Source of the DNA: Patescibacteria group bacterium
Lineage (GTDB): Bacteria; Patescibacteriota; Patescibacteriia; UBA10025; JAHIVO01
DNA length: 64,000 nucleotides
Reading direction: 5' to 3'
Assembly (NCBI GenBank): GCA_041660605.1
Contig: JBAZWB010000001.1
Coordinates: forward strand, 137,295-201,294
Part shown: piece after piece, positions 29,926 to 55,653 of the stretch
How the letters are laid out: each line of letters begins with the position of its first letter
How positions within the stretch are numbered: the stretch's first letter is position 1
Position numbers and translations under genes: made by a program
The notes under the pieces: generated by a model
The model's database searches: none
What the model was told of the DNA's origin: nothing
The model's input: only the letters and a program-made list of their open reading frames with translations

Positions 29926-30145
29926 GCAATCGTATAAGTTCCATTGGCATGAACCCCCCTTGTTTTATAATCAAAGGGTGGTATGATATACTGATTTTAG
30001 GCATTTTTTAACAAAAAGATGCAGAGGTGAGTTTAACTACGTTTTTTAAGAAGCTGCATCTAAAGTGCAATCAAAGCGGAGAGGTCGCCCCGCCTCCGTA
30101 AAAACTCCGGCGGGGCAGGCATAGTGTAATATATTTCATCAGAAT

Positions 30146-30213
30146 GGAGGGATCGCATAGTTGGTCTAGTGCGCACGCCCCGAAGAATACTCGCTTCGCT
30201 CGTATCTACGGGG
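30146..30213 (+). pseudogene. Partial duplicate of the tRNA-Ser 5' end (29 nt, 30146-30174, 2 mismatches) fused to a CCCCG...CGCTTCGCTC...CGGGG hairpin element (30175-30213)
   Basis: ggagggatcgcatagttggtctagtgcgc versus ggaagggtcgcatagttggtctagtgcgc of the intact tRNA 90 nt downstream. Confidence 0.7.
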
Positions 30214-30267: not shown

Positions 30268-30356
30268 GGAAGGGTCGCATAGTTGGTCTAGTGCGCTTGC
30301 TTGGAAAGCAAGTAAAGGCCAAAAGCCTTTCGCGAGTTCGAATCTCGCCCCTTCCG
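30268..30356 (+). tRNA. tRNA-Ser (anticodon GGA), type II, CCA not encoded
   Basis: Manual fold: acceptor GGAAGGG/CCCTTCC, D-arm GCAT..GTGC, anticodon stem CTTGC/GCAAG with loop TTGGAAA, variable arm AAAGGC-caaaa-GCCTTT, T-arm GCGAG-TTCGAAT-CTCGC. Confidence 0.8.
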
Positions 30357-30384
30357 CTCCGGATCTTATTAGATAGTATAGTTG

Positions 30385-33378: not shown

Positions 33379-36300
33379 GTGACTTTACAACGATTTTTCA
33401 ACAAAAACACGCCTAATTGGCTGACAAAACCAAAAAGGGGTAATAGGGGGAAAGAAATTGATTTTAAAAGCTATCCTGCGTTACTCACCATTGAGCAGGT
33501 TGGTGAGATTTTTAATATTCACGCAAACACCGTACGCAATTGGGACCGAACAGGCAAGCTTAAGGCGGTGAGAATGGGCAGCAGGCGTGACAGACGCTAT
33601 CCAAAAGAAATGGTGCAAAAAATATATCTGGAAATGCACCCAAAGGAAACGGAAGATAAAAAGGAATCAAACGAAAAGACAGCTTTACCTGCTCCGGAAG
33701 TCAGCAAATACATAATTCAACCCGGTTTTTCTTTTAATAAAATACGCCTGCTGTTAATCAGCAAGCGGTTTACTGTTTTTGTTTACTCCGTAATCATGGT
33801 GGCCGTAGCTTTTGTAACTGTTCAGGTTTCCTTTTTTGCTTATGTTTATACTATTCGTGCCGAGGAAAAGCCTCCGGAAGAATATACTCTGACCATTAAT
33901 CCTACTGTGGTAAAAGGCTGGCAAAATCCGGATAAGGCAAAAGAGATTGAAACCAAGACGAATTCTCCCATAAGTGATTTTACGGAAAAAAATGCCGCGA
34001 TTTTTCACAATAAGCCGGTAGTGTCGCCGACTGAAGCGCCAGCTGTCCCAATAAAAGCGGAAGAAGTTTTGCCGGCGGCTAACACTAACCATGAGACTAT
34101 AACTGACACCAATGTAAATATAAACACCGCTGTCCCACCCCCCAGTCCAGAGCCACCGCCAGCCAATTCTAATCTGAATCAGGCAGTCACGCCGGCCAAT
34201 ACCAATGTTAATGTAAATACAAATACCAACAGCAATAGCAATGCTAATGCGAATACTAATTCTGAGAGCGTTAACACTAATAGTGAGAATACCAATACCA
34301 ACTTAAATTCCAATTCCAACGCTAATACGGGGGTGGAATCTGATCTGAATGCAAATACTAATACCTCCGTACCTGTTGAGGGACAGCCGCAGGTTAAAGT
34401 TTTAGGCGAGGAAACCAGCCAGGTAGGCGAGGTAATAGAAACGGCGCAGGAGAATATTTTTGAAGCCAGCGGCTATGCCTTTCCCGATACGGTACCGGAA
34501 TTGGCGAAATTAAAAAGCGTGAAAATAATATACTCCCTGGCCGCTGATACTTATCCGGACAACGAGGACGTCATTACTTTGAGCTACTCCCTGGATAACG
34601 GGGATTCCTGGCAAACGGCGGATTCATTCGCCCTGCTGGATAATGTCAGTAACAGCACCCACGGCGGTTATTGGGAGGTATCTTTAAATAATATTGATAT
34701 AAAAGATTTTGCAAAGATCCGCGCACGCGTTTCTTATAACGCCGTACCTAGTGATAAAGACGCAAAAGCTTACCTCGATGGCATAATTCTGGAAGCGGTA
34801 GTCAAAAATCCTGAACCGGCCGTAGTTGAGATTCAAAACAGCGTTGAAATAGAAAAGACAGACGTCAAAATTGACGAGCAGCCGGTCGTCAGCGTGGCTG
34901 TCGAGCAGGAAAGTTTTTTCTCTTTTATTGGGGCAGCTTCACAGACGCGCGAAGTCAAGGACATTGAGCTGGTGGATCCTTCCGGTGAAGCTATCAAGGA
35001 GGTAAATTATGACCTGCAGGAAGTGCAGGAAGGAAAAACAATAAAAGCTGAATATGCGATTCAAACCGATAATTTTGACAAACCCGGACGCTATCAAGTA
35101 AAAATGCAGATAGAGCAGGACGGAGTTACCGAAGAAGTGACGCAGGAATTCAACTGGGGCGTATTGGCTATAAATCCCGACCAGTCTATTTACCAGGCGG
35201 GACAGCCAGCCATGCTCTCTATCGGCGTGCTGGATGAAACCGGAAATATGGTCTGCGACGCGGATGTCACCCTGGAGATTACCAATCCAGACGGAGAAGT
35301 GACCATAAAAAAAACCAGCGATGGCGGAATAACCGTCAGCCAGTACTGCACTTATAAAGGAGAATTCAAGGGTCCGGACTATTATACAGATTACATTCCG
35401 TCAGTCCCCGGTACTTATAAAATGAAATTATCGGCTACACATCACAGCGGCACCAATGTCATAAATGACAGTTTTGAAGCGCAATTATTCCCTGAATACA
35501 CCATCAAGCGGACCGGACCAACCCGCGTCTTCCCATATATTTATCAGCCTATGGTCCTGGAGGTAACTGCCCAAAAAGATTTTGAGGGAGAAATCACGGA
35601 AGTGGTGCCGGATGTTTTTGAAGTAAAAGACACCGATGACGCTCAGATGCGCAGGTTTACGAGCGGCACAGTAATATACAAGGAAATAGTTTGGCAGCGT
35701 GCTTTGGCCGCGGGGCAGACGATGAAATTAAGTTATAATTTCAAAACCCCGGAAAAAAGTCCGGCACTCTATTTCGTGGGTCCGGCCAGGGTAGGCGACT
35801 GGAATGAGGGGCGCGAGTGGCAGATGGCCATTGATGTGACTTATATGTACGTCCTGGCTAAGAACGCCTCTGCGCCGAGCGGATGGACTGACGATACGGC
35901 CACTTTTGATAATAAATATTTACGTGGCGCGGCGACGTTCAGCTCAACCGGTGGCGGTGCCGCGACGCACGCTCCCACGATCCACCATAATAATGTAAAT
36001 CCCTCCACTGATGCTGCTGGTACCACCTGTACACGCCGTTGCGGTGCCGTGGCGACTCTTGCCCATACTCATACGTCCAGTAACCCAACGATCGGTGATG
36101 CCAGTAATGATCCCGCTTATCACACTTTTTATGTCTGGAAAAACAATACCGGCGTCCCGGCCAATATCCCCCAGAATGCCTTTGGCTTTTTTGATGCCAA
36201 CCCGGGCGGTTCCTGGACACGACTTAGCGCGGCCGACAGCCGTTTAGTCAAACTGGACAATTCGCATACAACCGGCGGTACTGATACGCATTCACATACG

Positions 36301-39300
36301 GTCACCTGGCAGTCACTCGCTGCCGCCAGCGGTAGTTCAAGCTCGCTTGACCCTCTTTTAGGAGATGGTACTGCGGCTAGCGTACATGGGCATTTTGCGC
36401 CAGCGTTTGGATCCACGGATTCGCAAACATCCGTTCCCCAGTATGTGACGACCTTGATTTATGAGCAAACGAACGCCACTCCGCCAGCCATTCCGACCGG
36501 TTATATTGGATTGTTTGATGCCGATCCAGGCGCGGGCTGGACAGTGATTTCTGACGGTGCACTTGAGGACTACTACCAGAGATTTATCCGCGGCGATGCC
36601 ACGACTGAAGGTACCAAGGCCGGCGCAAATACAACCGACCACGCAGAAGTAACGAGCGGTGCTTCGGACGCGCCTGACACAAATGCGCTCGGCAGCGTTG
36701 GAACGGTTTATTCCGGCCCTAACCATACGCATACCATCACCACCGGCTTTAATACCGAGGACCATACGCCTTCGTATGTTGACTTTGTGGTAGCGCAATA
36801 CACTGGTGCATCATCGACAATCAATCTTTCCGGCGTGGCATATCAGGAAAATGAGAGCAGTCCGATTAACGGAAGTTCAGTCAATAAAACAGTAAATTTA
36901 CTGGTTAATGGAGCGGCCACTGCCTGCGGCGGAGCGGCCTGCACTGATGAAATAACGACGTCGGACGGCGCCTGGGCCATTACCGGCATAACAGCCGTGA
37001 GCGGTGACATTATCACCGTTTTCCTAAATGACGAGACGGAAGAAGGCACGACGGTATTTAAAAGCGACGGCGTGACCCAGACGAATATAAATATATTCCA
37101 AAACGCGGTTATCGTGCGCAATGATACCGGTACTTCCATTACTAATGCCAATCTTGAGAGCGGCGACCGGGATGCCGGCGATAATGATATTAAGTTTGAT
37201 GTTTCTTCCAGTAATGTCACGGTTGATTCCGGCTTTGAACTGCATGTCTGGACGGGCGATACGTATGACCCGGGAGGTACGGTCTCAACTAACGCGACTG
37301 GCGGCGACGTGCATGTGGATGACAGCGCTACAATATACTTCGATACTGCCACGAGCCAGGTCGGACTCGGAACCATAGTCGATGCCAGCGCGACGCTCAA
37401 CCTTGACGCGGCCACCACTTTTGGCGGCGATGTCACTATAAATTCTACCGGCACCTGGAATAACACAACTGCAAACCTGTCACTGACTATCCCAGGCAGT
37501 TTGCAGAATAATGGCACATTTAACGCCGGTACAGGCACCTATACTTTTAACGGAGCAACCAAGACATTCAGCGGCACGACCGCGACTACCATTCCTAGCG
37601 TGTCGGTTTCCGGCACATTGCAGAATAACGGTACTTTAACCGTCTCATCGGCATTGGCTGGCGGAGGCACCTTGACTAATGGCGCTACCGGCGCCTTGCA
37701 TATTGATGTGGCCGCCGCCAGTCTGACCTTAACAACTCTGACCGCCTCGGCTTCCGGCAATACGGTGGACTACGGCTATGCCGGTGCACAGACGGTAAAA
37801 GCTGTTACTTATCACCATCTATCCTTCAGTGGCAGCGGGGCCAAAACCTTGACCAGCTTAACTACGGTCAATGGTGATCTTACCTGGAGCGGCACGGCCA
37901 CCGGCACCAGCGCCTCTAGCCTGATTGTCGGCGGGAATCTGGTTATCAACGACACTGCCAATTTTTCCGCCGGTGCCGTGAACCTGACTGTCATGGGCAC
38001 CACGAGCATTACCGGTACGCTGACTTTTAATTCTAGCACTGGTACGAAGATACTGACCGGCGCCGTGACCATTAATGCCAATGGCACCTGGACTAATTCC
38101 GGCAATTCAGCTTTGTGGTTTAAAGGCGGGCTGACTAATAACAGCGCCAATACCTTCACCGCCGGCTCTGGTGCCTATGCTTTTTACACAAACGATCAGG
38201 CTATCGGCGGCACCAACGCCATCTCTATTCCCAATGTGAACGTTCCCACCATTACTTTGACTAATAACGGCACGCTCACCGTGACGACGCAGCTCACTGG
38301 TTCTGGAGGCATAACAAATTCCGCAACCGGCGCCCTTCATATTGATGCTGCCAGCTTTTCCTTGACCACCCTGACTGCCTCGGCCTCCGGCAATACCGTG
38401 GACTATGGCTATGCCGGCGTGCAAACTGTCCACGACAACACTTATCACCACCTGACCTTGAGCGGCAGCGGAGATAAGACAATGACTACGAATACGCGGA
38501 CTATCGGCGGCAATCTCACCTTGAGCGGTACGGCGACGGCGACTACCAATGCCTCAGGTACGACGACAGTGACCGGGGATGTTATTATCAATACCGGGAC
38601 GACGCTCACTGTGGCTGTAGCTTTTGTAGTCAATGGCGGTGATATTACGGGTGACGGTACGCTGACTTATACCGGTACGCCGATTATCTATCTCAATGGA
38701 ACCGGTAACCTTGGTGGCGCGACCGCCTGGACATTCTACAGTTTAAATTTAGCTGCCAGCGGTGGAACAGCGACGACGACGGCAATCGGTGCCGGACAAA
38801 TAACGATCGCGTCCACTCTGACGCTGGTCTACTATTATAATGCGGGAAACGACACGGAAAGTTTCCACCACCTGAACGCCGGGCCAAAGACCTGGACATT
38901 GAGCGGGTCGGGCACGCCATTCATTAAAAATGCAACATTTACGCCAGCTACCTCGACATTCATCTACTCAGGGACAGGGAGCACAAATATCACGGGGGCG
39001 ACCTACAATAACCTCACCTTGCAGCCTTCTTCTGGCACCCCGACCTATACTCTTGCAGATAGTACGGCGTACACAATTGGCGGTAACCTGGTCATGAGTT
39101 CAACCGCAAATTTAACAGTATCCGCTGGAACGTCCATAATTACCATGACTGGTACCTCCAATACCATCACCGGTGGCGGACAGACGATTTACGACCTGAC
39201 CATCAATCCTGCCACTGCCGGGACTATTACGTTGCAGACCTCCGGGCTGACGTTGACGCGCAATTTGATTGTTTCTAGCGGCGATATCTTCTCCGTTGGT

Positions 39301-45300: not shown

Positions 45301-48300
45301 TATACGGATGAAGGGTCGACGTTATATAATTGCGCATCGAATAATCTGACTATTGCCGTCAAGGTTAATGGTTATGGTACGTACAGCAGTACCTGTACAA
45401 CCGCTGACGGGGAATATGTATTAAGTGACGTGATGGTTGATGGGACCAATGATGTGCTGACTGTTTTTCTGAATAATGAAACGCCAAACGCCGTAGCCGT
45501 CTCAAAAATTGCCGATACGCCAGCGGGTATTAATAATTTAAATCTGTACCAGGATAAAGTAATCGTCCGGCACGAAAGCTCTTCAGCCATGACCAATGCG
45601 AATCTGGACAAGTATGATTTCGTCAACGAAGGCAGTGACGGCGATATAGGGTTTACTGTCACGACTAATAATATTACCGTGGCCTCCGGCTGGGAGCTGC
45701 ACGTCTGGACTGGCGATACGTATGACCCGGGCGGTACGGTTACGACCAACGCGACCGGCGGTGATCTGCACGTGGACGATAGTGCGGTAGTCTATCTGGA
45801 TACGGCTACTAATGCCATTGGCCGGGATATTCTGGTTGACGGTAGCGCCACCCTGAACATTGATGCTGATACGACCGTCTCCGGCGGCGATATCACCATT
45901 TCAGGAAGCGGGGCGACGGTTACAAAATCCACCGGCACGCCAACTGTGACAATTACCGGCACCGGCAGTATCGGCGGCGGCACGACGCCCTCAATAAGCT
46001 TTTACAGCCTGACCGTCGGCACGGCTACAGCCGCCAGCACGACAGCTGCAAATAATATTTCTGTTACCAATACCCTTAATGTCGATACCAGCGATTCTTT
46101 GGCTATTGCCTCGGGAATGACTGTCACACATAGCGGCGCCACCCTGACTTTGAATGGCACGATATCCGGCGCTGGGCGCTTAACCTATAAGAGCTCCACG
46201 GCTTTCCCGACCGGCGGTACCATTTCTTCAATATTACGCTTTGATTCCTCGTCTAATAATCAAGATTTGAGTTCGCGGACCTATGGCGGTAACGTGGAAA
46301 TTTACGGCAACAACGCATCAAATATTGTTACGGCAGCATCAGGTACTTATACAATCAGTGGTAGCTTGACCACAAGCCAGGATGGGACAGGCGCTACCGC
46401 GTTGGATTTGAATGCCAACGCCCCCAATCTGACGGTCAATGGCGCGTTGACCGTCGGTGCTAATACGATCCTCAGCTCCACTGCCAACATACTAGATGTG
46501 AAGGGTAATCTAACTAATAATGGAACATTTTCTAATAACGGCGGCACGGTACGCCTCAGTGGCACTTCACAGCAGACCATGTCCGGCTCCTGGAATGGGG
46601 CTCAACTTGCCGACCTGACAGTTACCAATAATTCCGGGTCTGATCCGGATACCAGTCCATCAGTTATTTTTTCCTCCTCAGTTTCACTTAATGGCACCTT
46701 TACTGCCGCTACCGGCGGAACCAAGCTAAGGTTCAACACTGGCATCACTTTTTGGGCTTATGGCTTGACCCTAACGGGTTCAGCCGGCAATCTGGTTTAC
46801 CTGCGCAGTTCCACGTCGGGTACGGAAGTGACTTTTGAATACGGCGGTTTGGCCCAGAGCGTCACCTATGCTGATGTCAAAGACATGGACAATGGTGGTG
46901 GTACCGTCATAAACGCCACCGGAACCGGTAACGTCAATTCCGGCAATAATACCAACTGGGACTTCGGCTCTATCCGCGTAGCTGGTACGATTTATTCCAA
47001 TGACGGAGTAACGCCCTATAACTGCAGTTCGGACAATTTGACTATCAAGGTTTCGACGAATGGCGGGGCGGTTAATTCCGGCACCTGCACGGCAGCCAAC
47101 GGCACATTTGTCATGACTAATATAACTAAGCCCGGTGCCATAGACCAGCCAATTGCCCTGTTAATTGACAGCGGGGAAACACCGCAGGCGACTTCTGTCA
47201 CGTTGGCAGCCAGTACCCTTGGTGACGCGAATATGGATTTATACCAGAACCGACTGATTATTGACTCCGAGACCGGTACCACAATGACCGATATTTTATT
47301 GGATACAGCGGACAACAGCGGTGATGCCGGAATACGTTACGCTATTGCCAGCGGTAACCTAAGCGTGTCGAGCGGGCTCGGCTTGTGGGTATGGACTGGG
47401 AAGAACTTTACCCCCGGCGGGACAGTCACTACGCCGGCGTCCGGCACTGCTGCCGGAGGCGCTGGAGATGTCAATATTGCAGCCAGCGCGACGCTTAATA
47501 TGGCTGCCAACGCGCTTTCAGTCGGCGGCGATTTTACTAACAGTGGAACATTTACTATAACTTCAGGCCAGGCAACGACATTTACCGCCACGGGTACCGA
47601 TTTCGCGATTGACGACGGTACGGCAACTTTTCAGAATATTATTTTTAATGGTTCCGGCGGAGGCTGGTCATTTAGTTCAGCGGTAACCTTGTCAGGTGAT
47701 TTGACGATGACTGCCGGCATGCTTTCCGGCACCAGCGACATCACCGTCAATGGGAACGACATTACCGGCAATGGCACTATTAATTTAACGGGTGGCACGG
47801 TTTCCCTGCCGGATACCGGCAGTCTGGGAGGGGATGCGGCCTGGACGTTTTATAATCTTTCCCTGACTCAGGCAAGTTTTACTGATAAAACAACCACTGC
47901 CATCGGCAGCGGCAGTATCACTGTCAGCAATGTTTTAAGAGGCTATAGTGCTTATGACGCGGGTAGCGACCATGATTATTTCCATATTCTCGCGGCAGGG
48001 TCGAAAACGTGGATACTGTCAGGCACCGGCACTCCATTTGCGAATGGCGGTCTTCTCGTCGGCGATACTTCTACGTTCCGCTATACCGGCAACGGGGCGA
48101 CTAATATCGCTTCTGCCGAGGATGCTACTACGAATTATTATTATAACTTAGAGCTAAAACCATCCGGTACCGCCACTTATACCCTGCCTGACGCAATTGT
48201 TAGCACGCCCCAGCGAGTGAACGGCAATCTGATAATTGGCAACGGCACTAATTCAGTTACCGTCGATGGCACGACGAATAATCCATATTATAATATCGGC

Positions 48301-51300
48301 GGCAATGTTACCTGTACTACGGGTGCTGGGACGAATACTGTCCAAACCGGCACTGCTACCTGGGCCATCGCGGGTGATTTTGATCTCTCGAATTGCGACG
48401 TATTTACCGCGACTGCGGGGAACACTATTACGCTTTCCGGCACGAGCAAAACCTACACGCATAATAACCTGGCCGGCAACCCCTATAATTTGAATATTAC
48501 TGGCACGATTGCCGAATCAACGCCCGGCACCAACTATATTGATAATAACCTAACTATCAGCGGTACATTCACCAGCACGGCGGCTACTCTAGGCGTTGGC
48601 AATACTTTTACTAATAATGGTACGTTTAACGCGAATAATGGCGATGTTGTCTTCAGCGGCAGCAGCGGTATAATTGCCGGTTCCAGCACTACGACTTTCT
48701 TCGGCCTTTTCGTCCAGCCTACCGGCAGCGGCACGGTGACGGTCAATGGCTCCAATCCTACGGTAACGGACGACCTTTCTGTCGCTACCGGAGACACCCT
48801 CTCAATAAGCAGCGGGCAAATATTATCGCATACCGGCGGTACGATTGACCTGCTTGGAATAATGTCAGGCGACGGCCTGTTACGAATTACTAACGGATCG
48901 AGTGGTCCTGGCACGACCGGCACTCTCAATGTTGATGTGCGCTATGAAAATGGCATATCGGAGACCACGCTTGATGCCAGGACTTATGGCGGGGATGTGG
49001 AATTTTATATTGATTCTGAGGCTTTAATGTCAGCATCATCCCGGATGGCCAGCGGCACTTATAATTTCAATGGCAATTTGTACATAAATGCCGTCAATAA
49101 CGCCAATATTTCTTTAGAGGGGAATTTTAATAATCCAACGGTTAATGTCACCGGTAATATTGATTTTCTCGGATCGGGTCCTGGAATGGAAATCATCCAG
49201 ACAGGCACCGGCACCTGGACGGTCGGTGGAAATATCGATTTTACTGATGGCACTTATACGGCAACAACGGGAAATACGCTGACCATGAACGGCGCAGACG
49301 CCACTATTAATACCGGCGGCAATAGTTTGTATAATTTCAGCACTTCAGGCACCGGCATTATCACTACCGCATCTGCCATTACAGTGACTAATGATGTGAG
49401 TATCGGCACTGGCAGCACATTGCGCGCCAATACAGATACCAGCGTAGCGGGTGATTTGACTGGCGATGGCACGCTGACTTACACCAGCGGCACGCCTACG
49501 GTCACTATGTCTAATACAGGCAATATTGGCGGTGCGACAGCCTGGACATTTTACAATTTGACGCTGTCTGCTGATGCCTCCAGCGATTACACGACTACCG
49601 CTGCTGGCATCGGCAACATTAACATTGATAATGTTTTAACCACCGAATCGGCTGACTGCGGCGTGGACTGTTTTCGTTATCATTACCTTAATGGCGGGCT
49701 GAAGACCTGGACGCTCACTGGTTCCGGTACGCCGTTTATAAATAATGGATCATTGACGCCGGCAAGCTCTACCTTTGTTTTTTCAGGAACGTCAGCCACA
49801 ACTGTTGCCGGAGCGACGTACAATAATTTATTGCTCCTGCCGCCGAGCGGTACGCCAACCTATACGTTGGCCGGATCGCAATATATTGCCGGCGATTTTT
49901 CAATGGCGGCTGGACTAACCATGGATGCCGGTGCGTATACGGTTACGATGGCCGGCACAAACAACAGCATCATCAGTAACGGTCAAACACTGTATAATTT
50001 AACGATCGATCCGGCGACGACCGGCACTATTACTGTACAGACAGGCAATCTGACAGTCTCAAACAATCTGCGAATTGAAGCGGGCGATACTCTGGCCATC
50101 GACAACGGCGTGACGCTGGCCCACACCGGGAATGATTTGATCATCTTGGACAGCGCGAGTACGATTGCGGGTCCCGGCCGGCTGACTTACCGCAGCGCCA
50201 CGGCGTTTCCCACTGATGGTACGTTATCAGCTGGCCTGATCCTGCGGCTGGATACGACTAGTACCAACCAGACGATGAGCAGCCGGACTGATTATCAGCT
50301 GGTGGAAATCGACAACAGCGGAGCCACCGGCGGCCGGACGGTAACCATAGGTTCGGGTACTGCGCAGACCGTTACTACGTCGGGCGCTTTGTCCGTCCTG
50401 TCTTCCGGTAGCGGTTCAGTTGAGTTGGCGGGAGCGACATATAATCCAGCGGTCAATATCGGGGGAGACCTGAGCTACACGGCGGGAGGAGGGACGAAGA
50501 CCATAACGACCGGGACTGGCACCTGGACCGTTTCCGGCAATGTCAATCTGACTAATGGCACCTTTACCAAAAGCACCGGCCATACGCTTGTTATGAACGG
50601 TTCTTCTAAGACGCTTACTTCGGCTGCACAGATATTGGAGAACCTGACGCTTTCCGGCACCATTACGCTGGCTAATGCCACCCACACAGTCAATGGCAGC
50701 CTGACGTTAAGCGGAACGGTAACTGCCGGATCCTCTAATGTAACCATGACGGGTACGTCGAATACTATCGTCGGTGGTGGAAATATTTTAAGTACATTGA
50801 CCATAAATCCTTCATCCACCGGTACAATCACGTTACAGACCTCTGACTTAACTGTTTCCGGGACGCTGAGTGTTGCCGCAGACGATACATTGAGCATTGA
50901 TACCAGTCGCACTGTGACTGCTGTAGATACGTTAGTCATTAATGGCACCATTTCAGGCGCCGGACGTTTAACATTCAAGGGCTATACCTTCCCGGGTACC
51001 GGCACCGTGAGCTCAATCGTCCGGATGGACGCGACCGATGCCGGCTCAGGCCAGAATATCGGCGCCCGGACATTCGGCGGCTTAGTTGAGATATATAATA
51101 ATTCCGCCAGCAGTAACCGGATTGTTTCTCTGCAAAGCGGTACGTTCAATTTCAGCGGCGATGTCAATCTTACCGCCGCCAACAATCAAAATGTAACCCT
51201 CGATGGTTCGGGTAATGATTCCACCGTCAACATCACTGGTAACCTTGATTTCACTGGAGCAGGCTCCGGCAGTGAAATTATCGCTTCCGGCACCGGCACT

Positions 51301-53412
51301 TGGACTATTTCTGGCAATATTGATTTTACTGACGGGACTTACACGGCCACAGCAGACAATATTCTCAAGATGAACGGAACAGCTAAGGCCATCACTTCCG
51401 CCAGCAATGCCTTAAGTAAATTTGAAGTCTCCGGCGGCAGCGTTTCTACTGCAGATGCCTTGTTGGTCAATAAAACGCTCAATATTTCTGGCGGGGGATT
51501 TACGCAGGCAGCCAATGCCAACCTTACCGTGTATGGCAATTTTACGATCGCTATTGGCACGACATTCACCAACGCCTCGGGCACCGGCATCCTCATCTTA
51601 GACGGCAACCCCACGGCCAATACTTTCACGGATAACTCGTCCCCAAAACAGAACATGGGTGACGTACAAATTGGCTTGTCGCCGGGTACCACGGATCTAG
51701 CCAGCGATATGATCGCTAAGAAGTTGACGATTAACGATGGCGACATATTCAACACTAATGGTTATGATCTAAACATTGGTATCGGAGGGATTATTGTCGC
51801 TGCTGATGGTGGCTCAGGCGGAGGCACATTGGATGTTGACGATGACGTGGAAACAGACGGTACGGTTATGGAAACAGACGGCATCTTTGACTTAAAAAGT
51901 GGCGGTGATTTATTAAACAGCGGTGGGACAAACGTGGGTTCCTTGCTGAAATTTACCATGCCGGCAGCCTTAGCTGACGTAACCAGTGATTTAATAACTG
52001 CTGGCACTGGCTCGCTATATGATCTTGAAGTTGATGACGGAGCCGGAGATTATAATTTAATCGTTGAAGTTGAGGATCCATTGGATGTGGATAATAATAT
52101 TAACATTACTGGCGGTATTTTAGATACGAAAACCGGTGAGAGTAACGCTATTACTATTGGCGGCAGTTGGGCCAACAGCGATACGTTTACTGCCCGGTCT
52201 GGTACTGTGACGTTTGACGCAACGTCAGGCACGAAGACCGTAAACCCCGGAACGTCTCCTTTTTATGTGCTTACCTTTAACGGTGTTGGCGGCACCTGGC
52301 AACCGACCACTAATACGGTTACGGTGTCCAGTAATCTGAATGTTACCAACGGTACAGTGGACAACGAAACCAACGACCAGATCCTGGATATTGGCGGAAA
52401 TGTGGCTATCAGTTCTGGCGGAGTACTGCAGGCTTCCTCAACCGCCAGCTTTACTGTCGCTGGCAACTGGGCAAACAGCGGCGATTTCACTGATGGCACC
52501 GGGACAGTCACGCTCGATGGTACGGCGCAGCAGACGCTCTCCGGCCAGCTGACAGGCGCGAATGATCGCTTCTATAACCTGACGGTTACTAACGCGGGCG
52601 CTGCTGACCCTGACGTCATCTTTGATGCCAGCGCTGATACGGATAATAACTTCACGGCCGCAACGGCGGGTACGCAGCTTCAGTTCAAAGCTGGCAGTAC
52701 TTATGCGTTTGACAATATCGCCCTGGACGGCCAGGCAGCGGGTACCAGAGTTTTCCTGCGCTCTTCGTCATTGGGCACGCAGTGGAATATAAATGTCTCC
52801 GGTTCGCGTTCAGTCTCCAACACTAACGTGCGCGATTCATACGCCTGCGGCCAGCCGCCCGATATAGACGCCTCCGACGGCACGAATTTTGACGCTACCA
52901 ATAATAATTGCTGGTTCATTAATTCACTGACTTTTTCGATATCAGATGTAGCCATCGGTTTCGGTCCGCTGGGAGCCGGGGGAGCCCGCTGGGCGACCGG
53001 CGATGGCAATGGCACTGGCGCGCAGCCGGCCGTAGGCAGCGGAGCCCATGAATTGACTATCAGCAGCAATTCAGACAATGGTTACGCCATTACTTACTAC
53101 GGCACGACCCTGACTGGCGAGCATGGCACTATCAGCAATGCCACCATTGCCGGTGATGGCAATGGTATACCGGGGACTGAGCAGTTTGCGCTGTCAGCTT
53201 CTGCCTCTGGCGATGCGGTTATCCCCGTTGACTATCGGTATAGCAGCAATAACTATGGTTTTGTTGAAAATTCGCTCACTACATTAGTCTCTGAATCCGG
53301 GCCAACAGCTTCAGAAACAATTGATCTATATTATATAGCTAATATTGCGACGCAAACCGAAGCCGGAGAATATAGTACAGCAATAATATATATTGCCACC
53401 GCAACTTTCTAA
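33379..53412 (+). CDS. Giant surface protein (6677 aa): N-terminal excisionase-type HTH plus TM helix, Asn/Thr-rich linker, Ig-like and Thr/Gly/Ser/Asn-rich beta-helix-like super-repeats, C-terminal SCPU/Csu-pilin-like domain
   Basis: Single uninterrupted ORF of 20 kb. Repeated modules ASASGNTVDYGYAGAQTV..YHHL.LSGSG.KT (5 copies), ELHVWTGDTYDPGGTV.TNATGGD.HVDD (3-4 copies), SGTIYTDEGS..YNC.SNNLT..VKVNG (3 copies). Confidence 0.85.
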   Translation: MTLQRFFNKNTPNWLTKPKRGNRGKEIDFKSYPALLTIEQVGEIFNIHANTVRNWDRTGKLKAVRMGSRRDRRYPKEMVQKIYLEMHPKETEDKKESNEKTALPAPEVSKYIIQPGFSFNKIRLLLISKRFTVFVYSVIMVAVAFVTVQVSFFAYVYTIRAEEKPPEEYTLTINPTVVKGWQNPDKAKEIETKTNSPISDFTEKNAAIFHNKPVVSPTEAPAVPIKAEEVLPAANTNHETITDTNVNINTAVPPPSPEPPPANSNLNQAVTPANTNVNVNTNTNSNSNANANTNSESVNTNSENTNTNLNSNSNANTGVESDLNANTNTSVPVEGQPQVKVLGEETSQVGEVIETAQENIFEASGYAFPDTVPELAKLKSVKIIYSLAADTYPDNEDVITLSYSLDNGDSWQTADSFALLDNVSNSTHGGYWEVSLNNIDIKDFAKIRARVSYNAVPSDKDAKAYLDGIILEAVVKNPEPAVVEIQNSVEIEKTDVKIDEQPVVSVAVEQESFFSFIGAASQTREVKDIELVDPSGEAIKEVNYDLQEVQEGKTIKAEYAIQTDNFDKPGRYQVKMQIEQDGVTEEVTQEFNWGVLAINPDQSIYQAGQPAMLSIGVLDETGNMVCDADVTLEITNPDGEVTIKKTSDGGITVSQYCTYKGEFKGPDYYTDYIPSVPGTYKMKLSATHHSGTNVINDSFEAQLFPEYTIKRTGPTRVFPYIYQPMVLEVTAQKDFEGEITEVVPDVFEVKDTDDAQMRRFTSGTVIYKEIVWQRALAAGQTMKLSYNFKTPEKSPALYFVGPARVGDWNEGREWQMAIDVTYMYVLAKNASAPSGWTDDTATFDNKYLRGAATFSSTGGGAATHAPTIHHNNVNPSTDAAGTTCTRRCGAVATLAHTHTSSNPTIGDASNDPAYHTFYVWKNNTGVPANIPQNAFGFFDANPGGSWTRLSAADSRLVKLDNSHTTGGTDTHSHTVTWQSLAAASGSSSSLDPLLGDGTAASVHGHFAPAFGSTDSQTSVPQYVTTLIYEQTNATPPAIPTGYIGLFDADPGAGWTVISDGALEDYYQRFIRGDATTEGTKAGANTTDHAEVTSGASDAPDTNALGSVGTVYSGPNHTHTITTGFNTEDHTPSYVDFVVAQYTGASSTINLSGVAYQENESSPINGSSVNKTVNLLVNGAATACGGAACTDEITTSDGAWAITGITAVSGDIITVFLNDETEEGTTVFKSDGVTQTNINIFQNAVIVRNDTGTSITNANLESGDRDAGDNDIKFDVSSSNVTVDSGFELHVWTGDTYDPGGTVSTNATGGDVHVDDSATIYFDTATSQVGLGTIVDASATLNLDAATTFGGDVTINSTGTWNNTTANLSLTIPGSLQNNGTFNAGTGTYTFNGATKTFSGTTATTIPSVSVSGTLQNNGTLTVSSALAGGGTLTNGATGALHIDVAAASLTLTTLTASASGNTVDYGYAGAQTVKAVTYHHLSFSGSGAKTLTSLTTVNGDLTWSGTATGTSASSLIVGGNLVINDTANFSAGAVNLTVMGTTSITGTLTFNSSTGTKILTGAVTINANGTWTNSGNSALWFKGGLTNNSANTFTAGSGAYAFYTNDQAIGGTNAISIPNVNVPTITLTNNGTLTVTTQLTGSGGITNSATGALHIDAASFSLTTLTASASGNTVDYGYAGVQTVHDNTYHHLTLSGSGDKTMTTNTRTIGGNLTLSGTATATTNASGTTTVTGDVIINTGTTLTVAVAFVVNGGDITGDGTLTYTGTPIIYLNGTGNLGGATAWTFYSLNLAASGGTATTTAIGAGQITIASTLTLVYYYNAGNDTESFHHLNAGPKTWTLSGSGTPFIKNATFTPATSTFIYSGTGSTNITGATYNNLTLQPSSGTPTYTLADSTAYTIGGNLVMSSTANLTVSAGTSIITMTGTSNTITGGGQTIYDLTINPATAGTITLQTSGLTLTRNLIVSSGDIFSVGAIALTVTGTSTITGTINITSATGTKIFTGLVTVSTTTGVWNNSGNSAVTFRGGITNNNTFTAGSGVHTFDTNSQALTGTFSIPSVTVTSPTTLTNDGTLTISTALSGTGGLTNSATGTLNIGGTSGITTITASASGNTVNYTGGVQTVHINTYHHLTLSGSGAKTMTSVQTVNGNLTLSGTVTATISSSFGVGLDVIINTGTTLTVAAQLIVSGGDITGDGTMTYTGTPTVYLIGTGSFGGANAWSFYNLTFAISSGAATTTTATGAGQITVASVLALSYWFNGDSDVNHYLDAGSKTWTLSGSGTPFPYNRAYAQLIPNASTFIYSGTSATNVRYAPYNNLTLSGAATYTQLTGGCTVSGALNVANGATFSIPTSMTVTNSGTFTLNTSGTVSGAGTVKFTSTSAGPGTGGTLSAVVQYDSSGGSIASTTFDARTYVGAVDIYGNNSSNSVTAASGTYTFSGNLSITQDGTGTTTLDLNTSDPTVGVTGTTTIDASTILSASSASAMSLGDDFTNNGTFTHNSGSVALTTTATATITGNTTFNNLSVSGIGAAKTITFTASSVTTVVGTWTVTGTAGNLITLQSSSSPTQWTINPTVASVSYVQVSDSNNTGVAFCATYSTDTGDNNTNWSVSSGGVCTTINVSGTIYTDEGSTVYNCSSNNLTVRIKVNGVGSYSADCTAAGGTFAVSNVSVGAINDVVTVFLDNETPNAVTITKTADTTSNLTDINLYQNKAIVRHESASAITNANLDQYDFANEGSDGDIGFTVTTNNITVASGWELHVWTGKTYNPGGTVATNATGGDLHVDDSGVFTTGGTTTVGANLAIDTGATMTAGAYDLTVTGTTGITGTMTISSATGTKILTGSVTVNSGGTWTNSGNSNVEFQGGLTNNSANTFTAGTGGYAFDTNSQAIGGTNAISIPSVTVTGVTLTNNGTLTVTTALAGSGGITNATTGALHIDVAAASFTLTTLTASASGNTVDYGYAGAQTVKATTYHHLILSTSGAKTMTNVTTINGNLTMTGTVTASTSTSGQTTVAGDVSIGTGTTLTVDTANLVVNGGDITGDGTLTYNGTPTVSLDGNGSFGGNTAWSFWNLTFADAACATLYSNATGSGGITVNNVMTTASQPGACIEVDEVSNAHDLYAGSKTWTIAGSGTSYVKNRGVLTPETSTFIYSGTGSTTVALGPYNNLTLQPSTGTPTYTLQNSTYSIGGNLVIVPDITAGTSTVNMTGTSNTITGGGRSIYNLTINPATAGTITLQTSGLTVAHNLIVSSGDIFSVGAVDLTVTGTSTITGTLTLSSATGTKIFTGLVTVSTTTGTWNNSGNSAITFQGGLTNNNVFTAGTGVYTFDTNDQAIGGTSTIAIPSVTVTTITLTNNGTLTVTTALAGTGGITNDTTGSLHIDVAAASLTLTTLTATASGNTVDYGYAGAQTVHDNSYHHLTLSGSGDKTMPAGTKNIGGNLTLSGTATATTYSGVGTTSVTGDVSIGTGTTLTIAKDILVSGGDITGDGNLTYINTPIVYLSGAGNFGGATNWSFYDLIFSISSSPNTTTTAIGAGQITVASVLTISSWNDGFGETYYHNLDAGSKTWTLSGSGTPFTGNATLTPSASTFVYSGTSATTVDAGPYYNLSLQPASPPDYVIYTIGDTTVGGNLVMSTLAQKLITQVGTSTVTMTGTSNTITSGGQSLYNLTINPSSAGTITVQTDDFQVDGALDIADNDTFSIPTGRTVTSIGAITLNTSGTVSGAGTLSLDYRSTGLGTGGTVSCIVRFDTTSASIGAGTFDARTYGGLVQLYNNQQTLDRVITAPATGTFVFSGGLTMRVNNQYGELTADFDDTTDPTVTVTGSVTIPAGGTFLAPSSTTLSVGASFSNSGTFTHNSGTVALTTSAAATITGNTTFNNLSVTGIGAAKAITFTGSSVTTVAGTWTVTGTAGNLITLQSSDTNNWTINPAAASVSYASISRSTNTGISFCAIYSTNGGNNAGWNISIGPICESVSITGIIYTDEGSTLYNCASNNLTIAVKVNGYGTYSSTCTTADGEYVLSDVMVDGTNDVLTVFLNNETPNAVAVSKIADTPAGINNLNLYQDKVIVRHESSSAMTNANLDKYDFVNEGSDGDIGFTVTTNNITVASGWELHVWTGDTYDPGGTVTTNATGGDLHVDDSAVVYLDTATNAIGRDILVDGSATLNIDADTTVSGGDITISGSGATVTKSTGTPTVTITGTGSIGGGTTPSISFYSLTVGTATAASTTAANNISVTNTLNVDTSDSLAIASGMTVTHSGATLTLNGTISGAGRLTYKSSTAFPTGGTISSILRFDSSSNNQDLSSRTYGGNVEIYGNNASNIVTAASGTYTISGSLTTSQDGTGATALDLNANAPNLTVNGALTVGANTILSSTANILDVKGNLTNNGTFSNNGGTVRLSGTSQQTMSGSWNGAQLADLTVTNNSGSDPDTSPSVIFSSSVSLNGTFTAATGGTKLRFNTGITFWAYGLTLTGSAGNLVYLRSSTSGTEVTFEYGGLAQSVTYADVKDMDNGGGTVINATGTGNVNSGNNTNWDFGSIRVAGTIYSNDGVTPYNCSSDNLTIKVSTNGGAVNSGTCTAANGTFVMTNITKPGAIDQPIALLIDSGETPQATSVTLAASTLGDANMDLYQNRLIIDSETGTTMTDILLDTADNSGDAGIRYAIASGNLSVSSGLGLWVWTGKNFTPGGTVTTPASGTAAGGAGDVNIAASATLNMAANALSVGGDFTNSGTFTITSGQATTFTATGTDFAIDDGTATFQNIIFNGSGGGWSFSSAVTLSGDLTMTAGMLSGTSDITVNGNDITGNGTINLTGGTVSLPDTGSLGGDAAWTFYNLSLTQASFTDKTTTAIGSGSITVSNVLRGYSAYDAGSDHDYFHILAAGSKTWILSGTGTPFANGGLLVGDTSTFRYTGNGATNIASAEDATTNYYYNLELKPSGTATYTLPDAIVSTPQRVNGNLIIGNGTNSVTVDGTTNNPYYNIGGNVTCTTGAGTNTVQTGTATWAIAGDFDLSNCDVFTATAGNTITLSGTSKTYTHNNLAGNPYNLNITGTIAESTPGTNYIDNNLTISGTFTSTAATLGVGNTFTNNGTFNANNGDVVFSGSSGIIAGSSTTTFFGLFVQPTGSGTVTVNGSNPTVTDDLSVATGDTLSISSGQILSHTGGTIDLLGIMSGDGLLRITNGSSGPGTTGTLNVDVRYENGISETTLDARTYGGDVEFYIDSEALMSASSRMASGTYNFNGNLYINAVNNANISLEGNFNNPTVNVTGNIDFLGSGPGMEIIQTGTGTWTVGGNIDFTDGTYTATTGNTLTMNGADATINTGGNSLYNFSTSGTGIITTASAITVTNDVSIGTGSTLRANTDTSVAGDLTGDGTLTYTSGTPTVTMSNTGNIGGATAWTFYNLTLSADASSDYTTTAAGIGNINIDNVLTTESADCGVDCFRYHYLNGGLKTWTLTGSGTPFINNGSLTPASSTFVFSGTSATTVAGATYNNLLLLPPSGTPTYTLAGSQYIAGDFSMAAGLTMDAGAYTVTMAGTNNSIISNGQTLYNLTIDPATTGTITVQTGNLTVSNNLRIEAGDTLAIDNGVTLAHTGNDLIILDSASTIAGPGRLTYRSATAFPTDGTLSAGLILRLDTTSTNQTMSSRTDYQLVEIDNSGATGGRTVTIGSGTAQTVTTSGALSVLSSGSGSVELAGATYNPAVNIGGDLSYTAGGGTKTITTGTGTWTVSGNVNLTNGTFTKSTGHTLVMNGSSKTLTSAAQILENLTLSGTITLANATHTVNGSLTLSGTVTAGSSNVTMTGTSNTIVGGGNILSTLTINPSSTGTITLQTSDLTVSGTLSVAADDTLSIDTSRTVTAVDTLVINGTISGAGRLTFKGYTFPGTGTVSSIVRMDATDAGSGQNIGARTFGGLVEIYNNSASSNRIVSLQSGTFNFSGDVNLTAANNQNVTLDGSGNDSTVNITGNLDFTGAGSGSEIIASGTGTWTISGNIDFTDGTYTATADNILKMNGTAKAITSASNALSKFEVSGGSVSTADALLVNKTLNISGGGFTQAANANLTVYGNFTIAIGTTFTNASGTGILILDGNPTANTFTDNSSPKQNMGDVQIGLSPGTTDLASDMIAKKLTINDGDIFNTNGYDLNIGIGGIIVAADGGSGGGTLDVDDDVETDGTVMETDGIFDLKSGGDLLNSGGTNVGSLLKFTMPAALADVTSDLITAGTGSLYDLEVDDGAGDYNLIVEVEDPLDVDNNINITGGILDTKTGESNAITIGGSWANSDTFTARSGTVTFDATSGTKTVNPGTSPFYVLTFNGVGGTWQPTTNTVTVSSNLNVTNGTVDNETNDQILDIGGNVAISSGGVLQASSTASFTVAGNWANSGDFTDGTGTVTLDGTAQQTLSGQLTGANDRFYNLTVTNAGAADPDVIFDASADTDNNFTAATAGTQLQFKAGSTYAFDNIALDGQAAGTRVFLRSSSLGTQWNINVSGSRSVSNTNVRDSYACGQPPDIDASDGTNFDATNNNCWFINSLTFSISDVAIGFGPLGAGGARWATGDGNGTGAQPAVGSGAHELTISSNSDNGYAITYYGTTLTGEHGTISNATIAGDGNGIPGTEQFALSASASGDAVIPVDYRYSSNNYGFVENSLTTLVSESGPTASETIDLYYIANIATQTEAGEYSTAIIYIATATF

Positions 53413-55638: not shown

Positions 55639-55653
55639 CTTTTATAATAAGTT

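Follow-up and report, generated by a model that had tools for sequence, protein, structure and literature searches.

The 64-kb window analysed here comes from a Patescibacteria (CPR) MAG and contains a gene for a 6677-aa protein, whose neighbouring proteins are also on record in a 904,720-bp NCBI/JGI MAG contig ('Patescibacteria group bacterium', locus tags WCV50_045xx). We regard this giant, with confidence somewhat above even, as the tip adhesin of a Pam-type pilus. It takes the tip position in our best model because its C-terminal pilin domain would accept a donor strand and donate none. A giant beta-helix tip on a Pam pilus would be a variant without an earlier description.

Pam pili are chaperone-assisted, usher-less pili of monoderm CPR bacteria that are built by donor-strand exchange; their tip subunit is acceptor-only, the shaft subunits carry a linker and a C-terminal domain, the anchor combines an N-terminal strand with a TM segment, and the chaperones have a TM helix (bioRxiv 10.64898/2026.03.03.709456). 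The way in which CPR/Patescibacteria locate and attach to their hosts is a central question about them, and the first description of the Pam pilus dates from as late as 2026. The giant tip is a concrete candidate for the determinant of host specificity. Its recurrence in most of 27 related loci suggests that dedicated and rapidly evolving beta-helix tips exist in many lineages. About 2% of a genome of ~0.9 Mb is spent on this gene, and from this cost we argue that the fibre matters to the organism.

The reading frame and its assembly

33379..53412, + strand: megaprotein gene, GTG start, 6677 aa, proposed to be the giant tip adhesin in a Pam-type pilus

The first-pass annotation had reported a single 20-kb ORF in a CPR bacterium that fills nearly a third of the window. 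The ORF list and the translation show that this is real: the frame is unbroken, its sole stop is the terminal one, and it covers 31% of the window. An open frame of 6677 codons cannot have arisen by chance. The GTG start is supported by homologues that can be aligned from residue 1 (alignment A1). The ATG at codon 86, which other gene callers take as the start, was rejected because the HTH upstream of it is conserved in frame among the homologues. The protein is rich in Thr (17.2%), Gly (12.0%), Ser (9.7%), Ala (8.9%) and Asn (8.2%). The GC3 of the ORF is 0.55, the same as in housekeeping genes, and a foreign origin was rejected on this ground; the raised total GC stems from codon position 2, and its source is therefore the amino-acid composition.

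Collapse or expansion of the repeats during assembly, the doubt raised earlier about this gene, could be addressed in two ways, one of which covers the whole gene and the other its 3' part. At the DNA level no two internal repeats share more than 76% identity, and exact repeats reach at most 33 nt, which is much shorter than reads or k-mers and makes assembly collapse unlikely. Positions 43559-64000 of the window are also 100% identical in a 203-kb ENA MEGAHIT contig and a 20-kb Logan contig, a comparison that covers the last 9.8 kb of the ORF, i.e. the 3' part only. With the divergence of the repeats and these independent assemblies of the 3' part, we rejected a collapse as unlikely.

Domains of the giant protein

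33481..33618, + strand: N-terminal cytoplasmic HTH, excisionase/BldC-like (aa 35-80); Pfam HTH_17, 29.2 bits (cut-off 27)
33769..33849, + strand: the one strongly hydrophobic segment (aa 131-157), either a signal-anchor or the core of a signal peptide; hydropathy scan
33859-33861, + strand: putative signal peptidase I site, conserved [IVA]-x-A ending at A161, which is invariant in alignment A1
34081..34398, + strand: Asn/Thr/Pro-rich low-complexity linker (aa 235-340), seen in the translation, of variable length among homologues
34399..35868, + strand: conserved N-module (aa 341-830), common to the giant relatives; alignment A1
35869..36804, + strand: His-rich region (aa 831-1142) with all four HxH motifs of the protein; regex count
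36805..52878, + strand: repeat body (aa 1143-6500), right-handed parallel beta-helix of diverged repeats
36808..37350, + strand: recurrent ~180-aa module, copy 1; alignment A6, 40-69% identity
41209-41760, 45268-45810 and 46963-47490, + strand: other copies of this module; alignment A6
52924..53409, + strand: Pam-type pilin domain, C-terminal (aa 6516-6677); NF058581, 57.8 bits (cut-off 55)

The C-terminal domain carries most of the argument. Its NF058581 score is borderline, with 57.8 bits for the last 200 aa and 54.0 bits for a 400-aa fragment, and the model was not reported in an NCBIfam scan of a 3477-aa piece of the giant. An HMM built for this analysis matches the domain with an E-value of 2.8e-39, and the C-terminal ~160 aa are 52% identical between the giant and the 355-aa pilin encoded by the next gene. 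These two proteins are the only carriers of the domain in the window, and there is no separate PamT-like gene. The PamT equivalog NF058579, with a cut-off of 240 bits, reached 25.9 bits for the giant C-terminus and 20.7 bits for the 355-aa pilin (g53559); in function the giant would correspond to PamT, but it is not a PamT orthologue. Among the best 150 of 353 cluster representatives of the family, the domain lies mostly at the extreme C-terminus, the proteins fall into two size classes (~320-390 aa and 700-3500 aa), and the closest relatives of the giant belong to the long class.

The domain had earlier been described as SCPU/Csu-pilin-like and shared with the neighbour. The sharing and the pilin character stand, while the family does not: the last 200 aa of the giant gave no Pfam match at E<=10 and g53559 gave no SCPU match. 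In the structural model of the domain, with moderate pLDDT of about 65-84, Foldseek found weak matches to the pilin domains of PapGII, FimF/G and CsuA/B (E 0.08-0.7); the likeness to CsuA/B is weak (6fq0_B, E 0.27, TMt 0.45). As far as the sequence can tell, this is the Pam pilin C-terminal domain of CPR bacteria, of the donor-strand type, and its resemblance to Csu, Pap and Fim is a weak fold match. A toxin-delivery (CdiA-like) reading was dropped, as the protein ends in a pilin domain instead of a toxin.

The repeat body, for which Thr/Gly/Ser/Asn-rich repeats forming a parallel beta-helix had been suggested, bears this out: it is a solenoid of short beta-strands with a fold match to known right-handed parallel beta-helices. 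The repeats within residues 1143-6500 are 30-78% identical at the protein level in a self-comparison of 150-aa fragments. From ~4650 aa of beta-helix with 22-28 residues per 4.8 A coil, we estimate a mature fibre length of ~80-100 nm. The modules proposed earlier as CarboxypepD_reg-like or Ig-like found no counterpart: aa 2600-2790, representing the recurrent ~180-aa module, had no Pfam match at E<=10 (PF13620 and Ig-like families included), and a profile of the four copies had no match in the PDB. In searches of Pfam, NCBIfam and PHROGs with the giant, both whole and in sub-segments, significance was reached by the HTH and the Pam C-terminal domain alone, and no SCPU, WxL, CarboxypepD_reg, beta-helix repeat, toxin or tail-fibre family was found. 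Pfam matches to MG2, Archease and P_ac_wall_RPT were discarded as sub-threshold noise; the MG2/Ig-like stretch lies inside the N-module and scores 29.5 bits, under the cut-off of 32.8.

On the N-terminal side, a profile of the HTH matched Xis Gp37 (4j2n, 3.8e-6) and BldC (6amk, 1.6e-5; 6ama was also matched) in the PDB, and the NCBIfam BldC family model gave 27-29 bits against a cut-off of 77. The likeness is thus to the small MerR-like DNA-binding proteins BldC and Xis, whereas here the HTH is fused ahead of a secreted giant protein's signal/TM segment. The fusion is kept in P0001, P0002, P0004, P0024 and L013, and a stand-alone ORF of ~65-80 aa with the same HTH directly follows giant-less operons in L018, L023, L026 and L028. 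In most giant relatives an ordinary signal peptide takes the place of the megaprotein's TM segment. This segment's 27 residues are many for a signal peptide that is cut off, and it may therefore remain as an anchor. The N-module has phmmer matches in the giants of L011, L012, L013, L016, L021 and L032, stands ahead of an S8 peptidase domain in P0004, and had no match in sequence or profile searches of the PDB. The His-rich region had no family match in Pfam or PHROGs; its clustered HxH motifs may resemble the metal sites in phage tail-fibre tips, which we take as a lead only.

The operon and its relatives

53559..54626, + strand: 355-aa pilin (g53559), proposed shaft subunit; NF058581, 71.9 bits
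54105-54128, + strand: putative donor motif SVAVTATV of the 355-aa pilin; motif regex
54138-54623, + strand: Pam C-terminal domain of the 355-aa pilin
54709..55638, + strand: chaperone-like protein 1 (g54709), signal peptide, two beta-sandwich domains and C-terminal TM helix; AF2 pLDDT 88.9
55654..56661, + strand: chaperone-like protein 2 (g55654), paralogue with 38% identity and C-terminal TM helix; alignment A3, hydropathy, chaperone HMM
56665..57576, + strand: dockerin protein (g56665), proposed pilus terminator/adaptor; Dockerin_1, 29.9 bits (cut-off 22.9)
56779-56799, + strand: donor-like strand VTVTATV of the dockerin protein, just after the signal peptide
57415-57573, + strand: type I dockerin of the dockerin protein
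57581..58711, + strand: cohesin-like protein with C-terminal TM helix (hydropathy), proposed membrane anchor; Cohesin, 20.5 bits (sub-threshold, cut-off 24.1)
58723..61185, + strand: 820-aa membrane protein, N-terminal ~340 aa homologous to the cohesin protein, TM segments, two CarboxypepD_reg domains (Pfam)

The 355-aa pilin consists of a signal peptide, an N-domain, the donor motif and the Pam C-terminal domain. It has the right size for a shaft pilin, and the conserved VxVTATV stretch ahead of its domain reads as a candidate donor strand, an assignment made from the motif and by analogy. In the family the motif precedes the domain in 38/59 small proteins and in 1/47 large ones (Fisher p 1.8e-12). 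A motif-level search found none upstream of the giant's domain, so that by this measure the giant, like 46/47 of its large relatives, appears to hold an acceptor domain without linker or donor strand. By this regex 21/59 small proteins come out without the motif; fragments or tip-like proteins could account for them. In the PDB, neither sequence nor profile searches with g53559 and alignment A4 gave a match; PamA/B are apparently absent from the PDB copy searched, or too distant from g53559. Candidate partners of giant aa 6490-6677 are aa 175-355 of g53559 or the peptide DDSVAVTATVNPS.

The two proteins that follow resemble chaperones with a membrane anchor. The AF2 model of g54709 has its TM helix at 274-299, and its best Foldseek match is the E. 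faecium WxLIP 9i1y (5e-12), followed by 9i25 (2.4e-11), while CsuC, CfaA, Caf1M and FimC were matched at about 1e-8 to 3e-7 and RbmA was also among the fold matches; the E. faecium WxLIP entries include 'WxLIP bound to long WxL'. A profile of g54709 matched EfmWxLIP1 in the PDB at E 0.004, and Pfam WxLIP matches were weak and below the cut-off (E 0.017 and 0.13, WxLIP_PGBD included). We therefore read g54709, from its model, and its paralogue g55654 as probable PapD/FimC-like chaperones with a C-terminal TM helix. CPR bacteria are monoderm, and no usher family matched in Pfam among the 20 neighbouring proteins and the giant.

Cohesin and dockerin proteins were said earlier to flank the locus. 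They are present and belong to it, but both lie downstream of the giant (56665-58711) and not on either side. The mid-part of the dockerin protein has weak, sub-threshold Ig-like matches. Its N-terminal donor-like motif is found in 19/21 homologues of the dockerin protein as against 1/43 cohesin homologues. The predicted mature N-terminus of g56665 is QVSRQVTVTATVPEK. Orthologues of the cohesin-like protein in L004/L005 have an unmarked Cohesin match (E<=1e-5) on record, and the 820-aa membrane protein is homologous to the cohesin-like protein (g57539) at 3e-34 and conserved in synteny. No single protein combines an N-terminal strand with a C-terminal TM helix as a PamR-like anchor would; the donor-like strand sits on the dockerin protein and the TM anchors on the cohesin-type proteins.

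Beyond the window, 27 loci were fetched from other species-level genomes, and most of them repeat the order of giant, pilin(s), chaperone(s), dockerin protein and cohesin proteins. The relatives come mostly from MAGs named Kerfeldbacteria or Paceibacterota. Collinear homologues in other genomes exist for the N-terminal, middle and C-terminal parts of the giant, and complete giants of 2300-3500 aa were found in L011, L013, L016, L032, P0016 and P0024. Three related contigs (L003, L004/L006, L005) end inside giant genes of their own.

A pilus model and its alternatives

The model predicts an assembly order of acceptor-only tip, shaft with donor and acceptor, donor-only dockerin terminator and cohesin membrane anchor; all of its mechanistic steps are inferred. 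The giant would probably be exported by Sec through its single hydrophobic segment (aa 131-157) and cleaved after A161. Its pilin domain, an acceptor groove without a donor strand, would be capped on leaving the membrane by the membrane-anchored PapD/WxLIP-like proteins (54709-56661) and would then take the strand SVAVTATV that the 355-aa pilin donates. As more pilins join at the base they would drive the giant outwards, with the 355-aa pilin forming the shaft, the N-module at the far end of the fibre and the giant's pilin domain at the near end. The dockerin protein, with a donor strand only, at its mature N-terminus, would end the growth and dock the pilus base onto the predicted cohesin domains in both membrane proteins. 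The BldC/Xis-like HTH would remain in the cytoplasm and probably couple production or export of the giant to regulation of the operon. We put forward the pairing of dockerin and cohesin, termination by the dockerin protein and the role of the HTH as inference only, and the full picture, a pilus with a ~100-nm, 6677-aa beta-helix tip, a dockerin-cohesin base and a BldC-like factor in the signal peptide of the tip, is tentative and as a whole rather unlikely. If the HTH part is true, one HTH would stay behind in the cytoplasm with every tip that is exported, tethered to the membrane or later released, and the start of a pilus would in this way be tied to gene expression. Among the roles suggested in the first-pass annotation, an adhesin or host-attachment fibre is the best supported. 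The giant is probably not the 'central component' of the structure, as the 355-aa pilin should form the shaft and the giant should occur once, at the tip. The first-pass annotation made no mention of the HTH and TM segment at the N-terminus, of the pair of chaperone-like genes or of the connection to a pilus system already described.

The same genes could also serve a display system of the WxL type. The C-terminal domain would then be a surface-retention module into which the WxLIP-like proteins insert a strand permanently, the giant would stay attached directly to the surface of the cell that makes it, in the way suggested for the large WxL proteins of Firmicutes, and the 355-aa protein would be its 'small WxL' partner. 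The nearest structures to g54709 and its marginal profile and Pfam matches are indeed WxLIP, and a small and a large protein with a common C-terminal domain beside a two-domain TM protein are what WxL clusters contain (PMC10599100). We still consider this reading improbable: no WxL domain was matched in Pfam, and the shared domain fits the Pam pilin C model, which was founded on proteins with filaments that cryo-EM has solved (bioRxiv 10.64898/2026.03.03.709456). The small protein also has an extra N-domain and a conserved donor-like strand that is found again in the dockerin protein, and polymerisation and termination therefore fit better than static display. Distinctly less probable is a fibre that is never cleaved, in which the HTH-TM part is retained, the beta-helix projects from the cell, the distal pilin domain binds pilins or other cells, and the HTH acts as a ToxR/CadC-like membrane-tethered regulator sensing load or contact. 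The anchor-like length of the hydrophobic segment, the conserved HTH-TM fusion and the N-module before the S8 peptidase domain in P0004, as for a generic display stalk, agree with it. On the other hand, ordinary signal peptides stand at the N-terminus of most giant relatives instead, and the hydrophobic segment closes with the invariant small-residue pattern [IVA]-x-A. N-terminal anchoring would also loop the fibre, because the membrane-bound chaperones put strand exchange at the membrane, where the C-terminus emerges last.

That the ORF is a chimeric or repeat-expanded artefact, or a pseudogene, and not one protein, is very improbable. Giant genes do break assemblies, as the three truncated contigs indicate, and the second-assembly comparison is limited to the 3' part of the ORF. 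Against this stand the divergence of the DNA repeats with the short longest exact repeat, the identity of the 3' 9.8 kb in two other assemblies, a frame open over 20 kb, the collinear homologues of all three parts, the complete giants elsewhere and the native GC3. We give equally little credence to an S-layer or sheath in which many megaprotein copies tile the cell surface. The S-layer protein RsaA is the top Foldseek match, yet a non-significant one (E 1.5e-3), and nothing specific favours the S-layer-associated structure that had been listed as a candidate role.

When the tip-adhesin model is compared with the Pam pilus of Ca. [quoted passage not shown] An acceptor-only tip and a donor-only terminator are also common to both, here as predicted from motifs. 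The differences lie in the tip, a ~240-aa single-domain PamT versus a 6677-aa beta-helix fibre; in the base, an RbmA-like PamR versus a dockerin on the terminator and cohesin-type membrane anchors; in the HTH fused here ahead of the signal segment; and in the lineages, Saccharimonadia/Microgenomatia for Pam versus mostly Kerfeldbacteria- and Paceibacterota-named MAGs here. The Pam description does not mention giants, dockerin, cohesin, HTH or WxL (bioRxiv 10.64898/2026.03.03.709456).

The two-domain tip adhesins FimH, PapG and CsuE also join an N-terminal binding part to a strand-accepting, incomplete Ig-like pilin domain and are the first subunits incorporated, as proposed for the giant. The giant is ~20 times larger, has a beta-helix instead of a lectin domain and shares no sequence similarity with them; unlike chaperone-usher pili, its system has no outer membrane and no usher, and its chaperones are membrane-tethered. 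For the fibre itself, beta-helical adhesins and passengers (Vag8, pertactin, Ag43, TibA, EtpA/HMW1, L. reuteri SRRP) and phage tailspikes are close known systems, but they are exported or attached by type V/TPS secretion, sortase or the virion, and none has a terminal donor-strand pilin domain as the giant does. The base recalls the anchoring of cellulosomes, in that a secreted protein carries a type I dockerin with two Ca-binding repeats and adjacent genes encode membrane-anchored proteins with cohesin-like modules; here the presumed pair is embedded in a pilus operon without enzymes or scaffoldin.

WxL clusters of Firmicutes combine a small WxL protein, a large WxL protein and a WxLIP (DUF916, DUF3324 and TM) and so share the three-part logic of the giant locus (PMC10599100). 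The giant locus differs in having no WxL domain, and WxL proteins are described as peptidoglycan-bound, not polymerised, with no dockerin or cohesin partners reported. The likeness nevertheless may link the Pam chaperones to the WxLIP proteins of Firmicutes, and it hints that the Pam pili of CPR bacteria and the Firmicutes WxL clusters may have branched from a single ancient donor-strand system of monoderms. The locus also points to a family of small HTH regulators that goes with these operons.

The giant gene and its product

The gene (window positions) and its 6677-aa product, here called the giant (aa positions), have the following features.

33379..53412, + strand: giant gene, GTG start, 6677 codons, single terminal stop
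aa 35-80: HTH (Pfam HTH_17, 29.2 bits, cut-off 27)
aa 131-157: sole strong hydrophobic segment, by hydropathy
aa 235-340: low-complexity linker rich in Asn, Thr and Pro
aa 341-830: N-module, conserved in many giant relatives
aa 831-1142: His-rich region; the protein's four HxH motifs all lie here
aa 1143-6500: diverged repeats, mutual identity 30-78%
aa 6516-6677: C-terminal Pam pilin domain

The giant is almost certainly a real gene, and the uninterrupted frame reported by the first-pass annotation is borne out by its start, codon count and lone terminal stop. It comes from a Patescibacteria (CPR) MAG. The gene makes up about 2% of its 904,720-bp contig, its neighbours are on record as WCV50_045xx ('Patescibacteria group bacterium'), and T, G, S, A and N are enriched in the product. 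That annotation had also proposed an assembly check; window 43559-64000 was found to match an ENA MEGAHIT contig and a Logan contig base for base, a comparison that covers the 3' part of the ORF. Since DNA repeats within the ORF reach at most 76% identity and the longest exact one is 33 nt, a frame produced by collapse or expansion in a short-read assembler appears unlikely. With a GC3 of 0.55 the ORF is level with UvrA, GroEL and PPDK, and second codon positions account for its raised total GC; judged by composition, the gene is native to its genome. Three related assemblies have contigs that break off within the giant gene (L003 1-5085; L004/L006 1-6276; L005 1-6258). Giant genes of pam-like loci commonly break short-read assemblies, so their true length is under-reported in databases.

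The profile of the giant's N-terminus matched mycobacteriophage Xis Gp37 (4j2n, 3.8e-6) and Streptomyces BldC (6amk, 1.6e-5). The hydrophobic segment is preceded by basic residues, followed by an acidic stretch and closed by I-R-A(161), of which A161 is invariant across homologues. The HTH + TM layout is kept in the homologous proteins P0001, P0002 and P0004 at 40-47% identity, and occurs also in P0024 and in the Kerfeldbacteria giant of locus L013; because of this conservation the GTG start is preferred over the ATG at codon 86 chosen by another gene caller. At the TM position most other giants carry an ordinary signal peptide, and we infer that the segment is a signal-peptide core with a predicted cut after A161, although its 27-residue length is somewhat against this. 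Stand-alone HTH_17/BldC-like ORFs of about 65-80 aa were found in four giant-less loci, on the same strand and directly 3' of the pam-like operon:

L023 7232-7456: stand-alone HTH ORF
L028 6104-6352: stand-alone HTH ORF
L018 16823-17059: stand-alone HTH ORF
L026 16049-16273: stand-alone HTH ORF

They match giant aa 26-95 with E values of 1e-17 to 5e-17. The HTH is fused in the window, L013, P0001, P0002, P0004 and P0024 and separate in these four loci, a pattern that ties it to the pilus operon and tentatively suggests a regulatory role.

In the N-module only sub-threshold Ig/MG2 signals were found. In P0004 (1007 aa, partial) an S8 serine peptidase domain comes after the HTH-TM-N-module, in the place of the beta-helix repeats; on this arrangement the N-module may serve more generally as a stalk that displays or exports varied cargoes. 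A search of Pfam and PHROGs for a family match to the His-rich region (aa 831-1142) found none. Its HxH motifs cluster within about 220 aa (HTH 896, HSH 971, HGH 1003, HTH 1116; window 36064-36732, aa 896-1118), in a stretch conserved among homologues, and could form a putative metal-binding site close to the distal end.

The repeat body is, with high confidence, a beta-helix fibre. An AlphaFold2 model of aa 5480-6677 built with 26 homologues (pLDDT 82.4; above 90 across about 460 residues) is all-beta with strands of 3-5 residues, upholding the beta-helix claim of the annotation; the model takes in about 1000 aa of the repeat body, and the fold elsewhere is inferred from repeat homology. A module of about 180 aa occurs in four copies. 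Hydrophobic autocorrelation gave a weak period of about 7 and 21-28 residues, from which we estimate a rod of perhaps 80-100 nm.

A probable Pam-type locus

Pam, the donor-strand pilus of the CPR bacterium Ca. Mycosynbacter amalyticus, was described in a 2026 preprint by cryo-EM of its filaments. Its PamA/B pilins consist of an N-domain, a linker donor strand and a truncated Ig-like C-terminal domain; the tip, PamT, is acceptor-only; the chaperones PamC/D carry a TM helix at the C-terminus; the anchor, PamR, has an N-terminal strand and a TM helix; and there is no usher (10.64898/2026.03.03.709456). The NCBIfam model NF058581 (CPR_Pam_pilin_C, cut-off 55), from the same preprint, scored 71.9 bits on g53559, the 355-aa pilin encoded by the next gene, and 57.8 bits when run on the final 200 aa of the giant; no other protein within the 64-kb window bears the domain. 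An SCPU/Csu-like C-terminal domain had been proposed as common to both; the sharing holds (52% identity), while Pfam SCPU gave no match to the giant's C-terminal domain. In the AF2 model the giant's final ~170 residues show weak but consistent matches to the PapGII pilin domain, FimF/G, CsuA/B and FimA.

Exhaustive HMMER searching with the giant's final 188 aa yielded 353 cluster representatives. Among the 150 best listed, the domain lies nearly always at the extreme C-terminus, and the proteins fall into two size classes, about 320-390 aa and 700-3500 aa; among the matches listed, those closest to the giant are long. Full sequences of these relatives share one build, which opens with a signal peptide (or HTH + TM) and continues through N-module, variable middle and beta-helix repeats to the C-terminal domain. 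Most of the named homologues are Kerfeldbacteria; Parcubacteria, Paceibacterota, Microgenomatus and others also occur. Record titles of some operon-bearing MAGs (L006, L009, L011, L014, L017, L020, L024, L031) read 'uncultured Gammaproteobacteria' or 'Bdellovibrionales', P0004 is labelled Zixibacteria, and further homologues Nitrospirae or Planctomycetes; such labels on carriers of a CPR-type operon are likely wrong, or the bins contaminated.

Downstream, a signal peptide and a C-terminal TM helix are present in both chaperone-like proteins, g54709 and g55654. Cohesin/dockerin proteins, as first annotated, are indeed present: a type I dockerin was identified in g56665 (29.9 bits, cut-off 22.9), and g57539 is cohesin-like with a TM helix at its C-terminus. 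g57539 (57581-58711) and the N-terminal ~340 aa of the membrane protein g58723 (58723-61185) are homologous (3e-34); beyond these, g58723 has TM segments and CarboxypepD_reg domains. The pair becomes three genes in L009, L012, L013 and L027. The order giant, pilin(s), chaperone(s), dockerin protein, cohesin proteins is kept in most loci fetched from other genomes, some of which are without the giant gene; complete giants there measure 2300-3400 aa, others being cut at the 10-kb flank. That the giant belongs to a Pam-type locus is quite probable.

Models of assembly and display

In small pilins 'DDxVxVTATV' stands immediately before the domain start 'TFSISDxxIGFG'. With one regex, this motif was found in 38/59 small and 1/47 large proteins (Fisher p 1.8e-12), and not in the giant. 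It also follows the signal peptide of g56665 ('AQVSRQVTVTATVPEKPP') and occurs in 19/21 dockerin-protein homologues, compared with 1/43 cohesin and 6/39 chaperone homologues. We take VxVTATV as a putative donor strand. Under the Pam model, the giant, accepting a strand only, would be the tip; g53559, donating and accepting, would be the shaft subunit; and g56665, donating only, would end the pilus, its dockerin plugging into the membrane-anchored cohesins. By this analogy we lean towards a giant at the pilus tip, while anchoring through dockerin-cohesin pairing has slightly less than an even chance.

The main rival, a WxL-like static display of the giant by the membrane-anchored chaperone-like proteins, draws on the AF2 model of g54709 (pLDDT 88.9; two beta-sandwich domains, then the TM helix), whose top PDB matches were E. 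faecium WxLIP 9i1y (5e-12) and 9i25 ('bound to long WxL'), on the family profile matching EfmWxLIP1 at E 0.004, and on a likeness in locus logic to the WxL clusters of Firmicutes (PMC10599100). The lower-ranked matches were RbmA and then the chaperone-usher chaperones CsuC, CfaA, CupB2, Caf1M, DraB and FimC. Beside the pilin domain and the donor motif, static display is rather improbable. The tip placement would make the giant a functional likeness of the FimH/PapG-type two-domain adhesins.

When compared to the Pam system, the locus has in common the pilin domain and the TM-anchored chaperone-like proteins, the defining features of sequence and fold that could be tested. It differs in that the candidate tip is a giant beta-helix protein and not PamT (25.9 vs 240 bits), an HTH is fused to that candidate, a clear PamR is lacking, dockerin and cohesin partners occur, and its relatives come from other lineages. 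The preprint makes no mention of giants, dockerin, cohesin, HTH or WxL (10.64898/2026.03.03.709456). Giant surface proteins are already known in CPR, of up to 4163 aa in Vampirococcus (PMC8080830).

Surroundings of the locus

Repeats at window 25264-26292 and 29565-29922 bracket an SF1 helicase gene (26727-29045): an 87-nt direct repeat that occurs twice, a 35-nt family with four members, and 90-nt inverted arms (26102-26191 / 29819-29908, 88% complementary). The ORFs 25281-25769 and 25913-26368 overlap them and look spurious. At 30139-30174, 122 nt upstream of the tRNA-Ser(GGA) gene (30268-30357), lies a 36-nt sequence that copies, at 86% identity, the stretch across that gene's 5' end and could be a leftover of integration or duplication. 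The N-terminus of the upstream 671-aa protein (30890-32905) is cytoplasmic; a single TM segment (~aa 82-110) follows, and the C-terminal part holds two similar repeats that weakly resemble T2SSG (pseudopilin; Pfam E 0.11). Family assignment gave none for the protein.

A few kb 3' of related operons lies a second giant gene (L003 17100-17297; L004 17964-18518; L005 17946-18500), with products of 2705-3226 aa on record that have an N-terminal T4SS_pilin match and Big/Laminin_G domains. Related operons are also followed by a signal peptidase I gene (Peptidase_S26; L003 13591-14220, L004 14592-15236); in the window that place is taken by an APH kinase gene, followed by primase.
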